Source of the DNA: Escherichia coli
GTDB lineage: Bacteria > Pseudomonadota > Gammaproteobacteria > Enterobacterales > Enterobacteriaceae
NCBI RefSeq assembly: GCF_044324875.1
Contig: NZ_CP172185.1
Length of the DNA stretch: 64,000 nt
Strand: one strand, 5' to 3'
The notes beneath the pieces are model-generated. The model saw only the letters and a list, made by a program, of their open reading frames with translations. It did no database searches and was not told the origin of the DNA. Position numbers and translations under genes: made by a program. Below, one piece after another: positions 15,808 through 34,714 of the stretch; within the stretch, counting starts at the first letter, position 1; each line of letters opens with the position of its first letter.

Positions 15808-16764
15808 TCAATACCCCATATTTTTCTTCTTCTCTAACTCTTCTTTTGCGGTATCAGGCAGGTAAAGGGTGGATTTGGTCAGTGTTAGCTTTTCAGGCAT
15901 GGTGCCGTCTTTTTTGTATTTCTCCAGCGCGTCGAAAGCAGGACCTGCCATGTTCGGCGTCAGTTCAACACTGGCGTTCGCTTCGCCATCAATCATCGCT
16001 TTGTAGATATCCGGTACGCCATCAATGGAACCCGTGAGGATATCTTTACCCGGCTTCAGGCCCGCTTCTTTAATTGCCTGAATTGCGCCAATCACCATGT
16101 CATCGTTATGGGCGTAAACCATGCAGATGTTTTTGCCGTTGTTTTCTGCTTTGATAAAGCTCTCCATGACTTCTTTGCCTTTACTGCGGGTGAAGTCACC
16201 TGACTGCGAGCGGATAATTTTGATGTTTGGCGCATTCTTAATGGCTTCGGCAAAGCCTTTCTTACGGTCAATGGCGACGCTGGCCCCAACAGTGCCCTGC
16301 AACTCCACCACGTTGCATGGTTTGCCATTCACTTCTTTTACCAGCCAGTCACCAATCAACTTGCCTTCGAGGATGTTGTCGGCGGTGACAGTGGTCATAT
16401 AGAGAGATTTGTCTTTCACATCGATGGAACGGTCAAGCAAGAAGACCGGGATTTCGGCATCTTTCGCCTCTTTTAATACCGGCTCCCAACCCGTCGCTAC
16501 CACCGGAGCGATAAAGATCGCATCCACCCCTTGCGCGACGAAGGAACGTACCGCTTTAATCTGGTTTTCCTGCTTTTGCTGACCATCGGCAATTTTCAAC
16601 GTAATTCCGCGCTTTTCGGCTTCACTTTTCGCCACATTGGTTTCTGCGGCGCGCCAGCCGGATTCCGATCCGACCTGCGAAAATCCAACGGTTAATGGAG
16701 CGGCCAACGCCATAGACGACATGGCTGCCGAGACTGCAGAGACTACAAGTAAGCGTTTCCACAT
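15808..16764 (-). CDS. ytfQ: Periplasmic sugar (galactofuranose)-binding protein
   Basis: 318-aa ORF with signal peptide MWKRLLVVSAVSAAMSSMALA and periplasmic-binding-protein fold signature. Confidence 0.95.
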   Translation of the reverse strand: MWKRLLVVSAVSAAMSSMALAAPLTVGFSQVGSESGWRAAETNVAKSEAEKRGITLKIADGQQKQENQIKAVRSFVAQGVDAIFIAPVVATGWEPVLKEAKDAEIPVFLLDRSIDVKDKSLYMTTVTADNILEGKLIGDWLVKEVNGKPCNVVELQGTVGASVAIDRKKGFAEAIKNAPNIKIIRSQSGDFTRSKGKEVMESFIKAENNGKNICMVYAHNDDMVIGAIQAIKEAGLKPGKDILTGSIDGVPDIYKAMIDGEANASVELTPNMAGPAFDALEKYKKDGTMPEKLTLTKSTLYLPDTAKEELEKKKNMGY

Positions 16765-16834
16765 AGGGTTGTCCTCGTCGGGGTAATTATTATTGGTGAA
16801 AAGATGTTCGCGAAAAAACTATAGACAATTCGTT

Positions 16835-16855
16835 ATGTAACGGATTGCGTTACAT
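16835..16855. promoter_or_regulatory. Operator-like palindrome ATGTAACG-GATTG-CGTTACAT upstream of ytfQ
   Basis: Perfect 8-bp inverted repeat with 5-bp spacer about 70-90 bp upstream of ytfQ start; binding protein unknown (inference). Confidence 0.35.
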
Positions 16856-17073
16856 CACACTTCAAAAAAGTAAATAAAACGTTAATCACAAGTTTGTAAT
16901 CGCTTTCATCTCACTATGAAAAATGCGGCTACGGTTATGGATTTTCCTGCTCTTTATACCATCTTAAAACTGGCTAAAAAGGAAAATGAAGAAGAAAACA
17001 AGCGAAGACATTCGGCGCGAGTTGGCTATAATACTCGGCACTTGTTTGCCACATATTTTTAAAGGAAACAGAC

Positions 17074-17604
17074 ATGAGCTTACTCAACGTCCCTGCGGGT
17101 AAAGATCTGCCGGAAGACATCTACGTTGTTATTGAGATCCCGGCTAACGCAGATCCGATCAAATACGAAATCGACAAAGAGAGCGGCGCACTGTTCGTTG
17201 ACCGCTTCATGTCCACCGCGATGTTCTATCCGTGCAACTACGGTTACATCAACCACACCCTGTCTCTGGACGGTGACCCGGTTGACGTACTGGTCCCGAC
17301 TCCGTACCCGCTGCAGCCGGGTTCTGTGATCCGTTGCCGTCCTGTTGGCGTTCTGAAAATGACCGACGAAGCCGGTGAAGATGCGAAACTGGTTGCGGTT
17401 CCGCACAGCAAGCTGAGCAAAGAATACGATCACATTAAAGACGTTAACGATCTGCCTGAACTGCTGAAAGCACAGATCGCTCACTTCTTCGAGCACTACA
17501 AAGACCTCGAAAAAGGCAAGTGGGTGAAAGTTGAAGGCTGGGAAAACGCAGAAGCCGCTAAAGCTGAAATCGTTGCCTCCTTCGAGCGCGCAAAGAATAA
17601 ATAA
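17074..17604 (+). CDS. ppa: Inorganic pyrophosphatase
   Basis: 176-aa [48 protein letters not shown]... (family I PPase). Confidence 0.97.
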
Positions 17605-32584: not shown

Positions 32585-32672
32585 CTCATACTTACCTTTT
32601 TGTACGTACTTACTAAAAGTAAGTTTAGGTGTTAGCGTATTTAAACACAAGACAAAACGATGGAGACTTCCT

Positions 32673-34607: not shown

Positions 34608-34714
34608 CACGCTGGCAGTGAGTTAAATAAGCCTCTGCTACGTAAGGGTTATAGCATTTGCCTTAAAGATGCATTTAAAATACATCTTATATTATTAAGA
34701 ATGAGGTATCAGCT

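Follow-up and report, generated by a model that had tools for sequence, protein, structure and literature searches.

The perfect inverted repeat upstream of ytfQRT-yjfF, at positions 16835–16855 of the 64,000-nucleotide stretch of Escherichia coli DNA analysed here (hereafter, the window), may well be an operator for a dimeric DNA-binding protein, set in the core of the principal ytfQ promoter; judging from comparisons of sequence, we give this reading a probability of about 0.5. The putative protein, neither GalR nor GalS in their normal mode, would recognise ATGTAAC-N7-GTTACAT. Inputs to ytfQ from GalR, AraC and CRP were already known, and to these the palindrome would add an operator-like element of the promoter.

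Position and conservation of the palindrome

The palindrome reads ATGTAACG GATTG CGTTACAT on the plus strand, i.e. perfect 8-bp arms around a 5-bp spacer, which confirms the sequence reported in a preliminary description of this DNA. Its symmetry reaches arms of 11 nt (16832–16842 and 16848–16858) that are complementary at 10 of 11 positions. Equally borne out are its location in the ytfQ promoter region—it sits in the spacer between ytfQ and ppa (309 bp in E. coli), 71–91 bp 5′ of the ytfQ ATG—and the remark that no regulator gene adjoins it. The features of the region are as follows, with promoter positions counted from the inferred ytfQ start:

15808–16764, minus strand: ytfQ, first gene of ytfQRT-yjfF, encoding the binding protein of a galactofuranose/arabinofuranose ABC transporter; the regulated gene
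16747–16762, minus strand: O2, internal GalR operator GTGGAAACGCTTACTT, overlapping ytfQ codons 1–6; 19.35 bits with the GalR matrix
16818–16823, minus strand: TATAGT, the presumed –10 hexamer, preceded by a conserved ATTGTC and with a C at –13; start placed near 16811
16835–16855, no strand assigned: palindrome ATGTAACG-N5-CGTTACAT, conserved unit ATGTAAC-N7-GTTACAT; about –44 to –24
16841–16862, minus strand: CRP-like 22-mer AAGTGTGATGTAACGCAATCCG (TGTGA-N6-GCAAT), centred at about –40.5/–41.5
16894–16909, minus strand: O1, upstream GalR/GalS-type operator ATGAAAGCGATTACAA; about –98 to –83; 15.1 bits with the GalR matrix
16915–16952, minus strand: AraC-like direct repeats GAGCAGGAAAATCCATA and TAGCCGCATTTTTCATA in a 21-bp register, with TCCATA and AGC conserved
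17074–17604, plus strand: ppa, divergent from ytfQ

By itself, the perfection of the palindrome is without significance: the window holds 36 inverted repeats with perfect 8-bp arms and spacers of 1–11, as against about 11 expected under uniform base composition. We hold the palindrome to be real because its arms are conserved, not because the repeat is perfect. To assess this, ytfQ loci were taken from one genome per species, and the upstream regions of 22 Enterobacteriaceae were aligned with the window (23 sequences). On conservation in relatives, on which the preliminary description had made its proposal depend, the alignment gives a positive answer, with the 7-nt arms ATGTAAC/GTTACAT identical in 21 of the 23 sequences; the genera with unaltered arms include Escherichia, Citrobacter, Enterobacter, Pseudocitrobacter, Phytobacter, Superficieibacter and Mangrovibacter. 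The exceptions are Enterobacter cloacae, with one substitution, and Pluralibacter gergoviae, in which both arms are lost (TGTGACCTCGCGCATTTCGTTCATT) while TGTGA, CA, TATAGT, both GalR operators and the AraC repeats are retained. The arms are therefore a unit separable from the neighbouring elements.

Column conservation is 0.96–1.0 throughout both 7-nt arms (mean 0.975, compared with 0.77 for the whole spacer) and 0.39–0.61 in the 5 nt directly downstream, and the arm pair ranks first among the 174 possible 7+N7+7 placements in the intergenic alignment. Variation among the aligned Enterobacteriaceae affects the innermost pair (G/T...C/T/A) as well as loop and flanks; the only conserved loop bases are a C and an A, both of which belong to the CRP half-site and break the symmetry of the palindrome. 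Within E. coli, the exact 40-nt allele is present in 4613 of 5421 genomes, the perfect allele thus being the major one, and the K-12 allele, ATGTAACGCAATCTGTTACAT, has 7-bp arms with a G-T innermost pair. The palindrome was absent from the Erwinia, Pantoea, Serratia, Pectobacterium, Yersinia, Budvicia, Aeromonas and Vibrio loci examined.

In the orientation of ytfQ, the AraC-like repeats are followed by O1 and then by TGTGATGTAAC-N7-GTTACAT, ahead of which several genera have about 100 additional bp. The right arm is succeeded by 11 nt, composed of five variable bases and the conserved ATTGTC, and then by TATAGT (16823–16818); at the 3′ end of the map stand the Shine-Dalgarno sequence GAGGA and the ATG that overlaps the second GalR operator. 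TATAGT is nearly invariant in the 23-sequence alignment and keeps a fixed distance from the palindrome, with zero insertions or deletions between the two in any aligned species despite the insertion further upstream. If TATAGT is taken as the –10 hexamer, transcription would start near 16811, which would put the palindrome at –44 to –24; this start is our inference, and no experimental record of a ytfQ start site was found in the literature searched, Kim 2012 included. On the MG1655 map the palindrome corresponds to 4449871–4449891 and the presumed start to about 4449915.

The palindrome overlaps a CRP-like site in that its left arm serves as the N6 spacer of that site. All 23 sequences have the same TGTGA and, in the right half, the same C and A, and the site fits 7 of the 10 core bases (TGTGA plus nCAnn) of TGTGA-N6-TCACA; it is an overlapping site, not the palindrome itself. 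The 22-mer resembles those of MG1655 araBAD (AAGTGTGACGCCGTGCAAATAA) and galP1 (AAGTGTGACATGGAATAAATTA), and a cya deletion strain showed a decrease of 3.6-fold for ytfQ and 5.2-fold for ytfR (PMC4512719).

With the palindrome centred near –34, the left arm would take up the CRP spacer, and –30 to –24 would be covered by the right arm. The arms thus occupy the CRP N6 spacer and the promoter spacer, yet are exact reverse complements of each other. Neither of these spacers demands a specific sequence for CRP or RNA polymerase. Reverse-complementary arms that are constrained where CRP and RNA polymerase impose nothing, and that show no compensatory changes, point to a symmetric dimeric protein. 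Once bound, this protein would compete with CRP and RNA polymerase, and because it would exclude both, the element most likely represses, which is the sign of regulation that we infer. The arrangement is reminiscent of class II CRP promoters with an overlapping repressor site, as ytfQ likewise combines a CRP-like site near –41.5, a poor –35, a good –10 and an interlocked symmetric site; in contrast to those promoters, the competing factor at ytfQ is putative and the arrangement is read from sequence.

Further upstream, the AraC-like repeats are comparable to araI1 (TAGCATTTTTATCCATA) of MG1655, and regulation of ytfQ by AraC is quoted in PMC10191376. More than 100 bp separate the repeats from the TATAGT promoter downstream, and more than 200 bp do so in genera with the insertion. 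At such a distance classical contact at –35 is out of reach, so there may be a second, AraC-dependent promoter immediately 3′ of the repeats, with which the upstream GalR operator would overlap.

Several other features of the intergenic region emerged from the alignment. The insertion of about 100 bp is poorly conserved and splits an AraC/GalR O1 module from a CRP/palindrome/–10 module; its carriers are Pseudocitrobacter, Phytobacter, Superficieibacter, Mangrovibacter and several Enterobacter-like species (loci L005, L006, L009–L012, L014, L015, L017, L019 and L053), and in RIT691 (L013) the extra sequence, about 110 bp, lies between the –10 and the ribosome-binding site instead. Upstream of the CRP-like site lies a conserved block, TTAAC(G/A)-N8-(A/T)TTCAC-TTTT (window 16870–16887, minus strand). 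On the other side of the spacer, ppa is preceded by a strong sigma-70-like promoter, AAGACA-16-TATAAT (window 17005–17032, plus strand; 10 of 12 matches), which is conserved in the genera whose 330-nt aligned stretch reaches it.

GalR/GalS control and rival explanations

The preliminary description had proposed repression by a LacI-family regulator encoded elsewhere. Such a regulator does control ytfQ (PMC5110547, PMC10191376): GalR ChIP-chip gave a qPCR-validated ratio of 22 at ppa/ytfQ (PMC5110547), and GalR/GalS regulation of ytfQ is quoted in PMC10191376. The palindrome, however, is not the LacI-type operator. A GalR matrix was built from 18 published ChIP motifs other than the two ytfQ-region operators (training range 14.6–23.0 bits), and its two best matches in the whole 64-kb window are O1 and, at the top, O2. 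O1 is listed in Table S1 of Qian 2016 at MG1655 4449817–32 (PMC5110547); O2 is a published ChIP-chip motif, also in Table S1, with the peak probe centred at 4449971 (PMC5110547). In the alignment O1 conserves the pattern TGnAAnCGnTTACA, with only the n positions varying, and O2 varies solely at operator n positions, all of them synonymous in the ytfQ codons, with the rare leucine codons TTA-CTT retained. The centres of O1 and O2, at about –90 and +56, lie 147 bp (about 14 helical turns) apart and flank the ytfQ promoter. With an upstream and an intragenic GalR operator plus a CRP-like site near –41, ytfQ resembles galETK, which has OE at –60.5, OI at +53.5 and CRP.

The palindrome lies about 40 bp from O1 and about 70 bp from O2, and shares with GalR/GalS operators (galE OE/OI, mglB, galP, galS) the promoter, the regulon context and the half-site core. 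The likeness of its half-sites to LacI/GalR-family operators, noted in the preliminary description, is indeed there: the arms ATGTAAC/GTTACAT contain the GalR half-site core TGTAA/TTACA, and TTACA ends 10 of the 18 GalR ChIP motifs (our own count from Table 3 of PMC5110547). A non-canonical auxiliary site, where GalR or GalS touches both TGTAAC half-sites, for example within a repressor loop that joins O1 and O2, would make sense of this core and of a palindrome that falls inside the ChIP-chip peak, between two good operators, but we consider it improbable. A LacI/GalR operator is a 14–16 bp dyad with a CG step in the middle (TGnAAnCGnTTnCA). The palindrome has CC there (CT in K-12; TT or AC in further genera), and between its half-sites are 5 bp more than suit a LacI/GalR dimer, an excess of half a helical turn that places them on opposite faces of the helix. 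In the PWM scan that the preliminary description had envisaged, the palindrome attains at best 5.45 bits, far below the 14.6–23 of the 18 ChIP-derived GalR sites, and the catalogue of 165 GalR operators in PMC5110547 does not include it. While the ChIP-chip peak covers the region, its probe (4449971) is on O2 and its resolution is too coarse for sites about 90 bp apart. Moreover, P. gergoviae has both GalR operators without the palindrome, which is thus, unlike GalR/GalS operators, evolutionarily separable from the two true operators of ytfQ.

Another account, to which we grant a minor though appreciable chance, dispenses with a separate factor altogether: the conserved bases would be those of the CRP site and of core-promoter determinants, and their symmetry would be incidental. 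The invariant TGTGA and right-half CA, centred near –41, the cya-dependent expression and the resemblance to the ara and gal CRP 22-mers agree with this account. Yet CRP leaves its N6 spacer free, P. gergoviae combines both CRP half-sites with a different spacer, –30 to –24 is not a known sigma-70 element, and it is unlikely that two 7-nt arms, held 7 nt apart and here ranked first of 174, would be exact reverse complements by chance (4^-7 per placement). We regard it as very unlikely that the repeat acts as an RNA hairpin, be it in a ytfQ 5′ leader transcribed from an upstream AraC-dependent promoter, which the distant AraC-like repeats make conceivable, or in an antisense transcript. The 8-bp stem reaches –9.2 kcal/mol in the ytfQ sense (z –2.1) and –10.5 in the opposite sense (z –3.6), but is only modest and lies upstream of the presumed start; zero compensatory changes are seen, and the sole variable pair decays to T-T or G-A mismatches, so it is the sequence and not the pairing that is conserved. 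In addition, no T-run follows the stem in either orientation, the terminator scan is empty, and the best Rfam match, at 22 bits, falls short of the gathering score of 60. A chance palindrome without function, finally, is hardly credible: although perfect 8-bp-arm repeats abound in the window and 22 of 100 shuffles contained the exact pattern with up to 3 mismatches at least once, the arms are invariant across genera from Escherichia to Mangrovibacter within an otherwise diverged spacer.

Candidate regulators

Which protein could bind such an operator? None of the papers searched assigns the palindrome to a regulator, and a ytfQ entry is absent from the IPOD-HR and iModulon supplements. The preliminary description had hoped to define a regulon from further copies of the palindrome, but in about 470 kb of E. 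coli DNA only ytfQ matched: a second copy of ATGTAAC-N7-GTTACAT, even with mismatches allowed, was found neither in the 64-kb window nor in the 405 kb scanned from MG1655, which span the ara, gal, mgl, galP, galR, araE, araF, xyl and rbs loci with all ara/gal regulon promoters, weaker matches being at chance level. Consequently, there is no regulon that points to a factor.

The motifs of many other E. coli regulators differ from the palindrome in spacing, orientation or core bases. This holds for the TyrR box (TGTAAA-N6-TTTACA), HexR and GntR/IdnR (TGTTAC-CG-GTAACA); for CytR, PurR, Cra, NagC/Mlc (TT-N9-AA) and LexA; for PadR (ATGT-N8-ACAT), MqsA (TAACCT-N3-AGGTTA) and OmpR/RstA/CpxR; and for the LysR T-N11-A motif, the AraC half-site and the NrdR box. 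YtfQ protein falls when NrdR is overexpressed, yet an NrdR box is lacking. A YfeC ChIP-exo site that Dataset S4 of Gao 2021 labels ytfQ (4448117–4448149, signal/noise 18.7) falls within the gene, at about +132 to +164 (window about 16600–16632), and not on the palindrome, assuming the older MG1655 genome version that other entries of that table suggest. A palindrome in the short ytfH-qorB/ytfG spacer, ACTTAC-TAAAA-GTAAGT (32608–32624), is likely the operator of the HxlR-type YtfH; it differs from the ytfQ palindrome, and we therefore discarded YtfH as a binder.

NsrR, an Rrf2 protein of E. coli, comes closer without fitting. A perfect NsrR-type 11-1-11 operator, AAGATGCATTTAAAATACATCTT, occurs at 34666–34688, 18 kb from the ytfQ element; at up to 3 mismatches the window holds no other, and 100 shuffles gave none. 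We take it to be the NsrR site of the ytfE promoter. The ytfQ half-site GTGATGTAACG shares GATGTA with AAGATGTATTT. Compared with the NsrR operator (11-1-11, AAGATGyATTT), however, the ytfQ element is 11-5-11, with a spacer 4 bp longer, has ACG against TTT in the inner half-site, and matches the half-site at 6 of 11 positions.

One lead came from metagenome contigs, which were scanned with a pattern meant to leave out ytfQ orthologues. ATGTAAC-N7-GTTACAT was matched exactly at 120 loci, only 27 of them inside long ORFs, and by far the commonest neighbour was a gene for a cluster-less Rrf2-family repressor, which adjoins 16 of the 120 matches. All eight palindrome-linked proteins tested belong to Pfam Rrf2 (E 1e-27 to 1e-32); the proteins are 25–73% identical in pairwise comparison and have a single conserved Cys and a common recognition helix, TNPVV[IV]RR. 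Their nearest solved structures are 1YLF and YwnA (1XD7), and their nearest named NCBIfam is HypR, below the cut-off. At eight loci the last AT of the palindrome and the next G form the start codon of the Rrf2 regulator gene, and in most loci of this class a TTGAC stands 12 nt upstream of the palindrome. At other loci the palindrome lies 8–28 nt upstream of the regulator gene or of an adjacent gene for a flavodoxin-like reductase, and at some just downstream of the regulator gene, ahead of the neighbouring gene. A Sphingosinicella-type isolate homologue retains the right arm alone, which means that not every member of this family has the operator. Two further sequences, TAATTGTAACTA and CAGTTACAATTA, presumably form a 12-3-12 repeat that gives the TGTAAC-N7-GTTACA geometry. 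Both are contained in the paper on HypR, an Rrf2 repressor of S. aureus (PMC6067689).

On these grounds ATGTAAC-N7-GTTACAT is an established operator type of cluster-less Rrf2 repressors, and thereby offers one lead to ytfQ. The ytfQ palindrome has the same sequence and geometry as these YwnA/HypR-type operators, and both are placed at a promoter. Unlike the Rrf2 operators, which sit at their own regulator gene or beside reductase or transporter genes, it fronts a sugar ABC transporter. To our knowledge, NsrR and IscR are the only two Rrf2 proteins of E. coli K-12, and we know of no regulator of the YwnA/HypR subfamily in E. coli. NsrR and IscR match the NCBIfam models of those names, i.e. other Rrf2 subfamilies, are 18–25% identical to the palindrome-linked proteins, and have recognition helices (SRNHMVKIINQ and SLSYLEQLFSR) that differ from TNPVV[IV]RR; neither is a TNPVV[IV]RR regulator devoid of the three-Cys cluster site. 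No Rrf2 gene was found in the window, in the Enterobacteriaceae ytfQ loci or in the MG1655 stretches L081–L089, and a profile search with the palindrome-linked Rrf2 proteins returned mainly alphaproteobacterial relatives, which makes it uninformative about E. coli. It is thus a tentative suggestion that in E. coli and its relatives a candidate repressor would shut the galactofuranose/arabinofuranose transporter by sitting on the CRP site and the –35 region. That repressor could be a YwnA/HypR-like winged-helix protein, or NsrR or IscR in an unrecognised mode.

The metagenome contigs also contained other recurrent groups. A longer palindrome, ATGTAACGTATTACGTTACAT, recurs in unrelated high-G+C contigs (L092, L120, L134, L147, L155, L174 and L195), flanked by AAC...GTT in most loci and with single-base variants of the spacer in two. 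Naive ORF calls beside this longer palindrome matched no Pfam family, and the neighbours of AACATGTAACGTAtTACGTTACATGTT, a second metagenomic class, gave none either. Six contigs (L096, L150, L185, L188, L190 and L208; G+C 0.26–0.62) encode a sigma-70-family protein within 1.5 kb of ATGTAAC-N7-GTTACAT, with 24–77% identity between contigs; in L096, the palindrome lies 18 nt upstream of the start of the sigma-70-family gene.

Implications for the ytfQ regulatory map

The ytfQRT-yjfF operon offers a small, well-studied example of a promoter that combines several sugar signals (AraC, GalR/GalS and CRP). As an operator, the palindrome would be a fourth input, beside CRP, AraC at the upstream repeats, and GalR/GalS at about –90 and +56. 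A fourth element that is conserved as strictly as the –10 hexamer means that the regulatory map of ytfQ is incomplete even in K-12. For annotation, the lesson is that a GalR-like half-site is insufficient for calling a LacI-family operator. The 21-mer itself provides a short, defined bait for finding the factor. If it is true that an Rrf2-type sensor of redox state, NO or Fe-S clusters binds there, a stress signal would be linked to the uptake of a rare sugar form.
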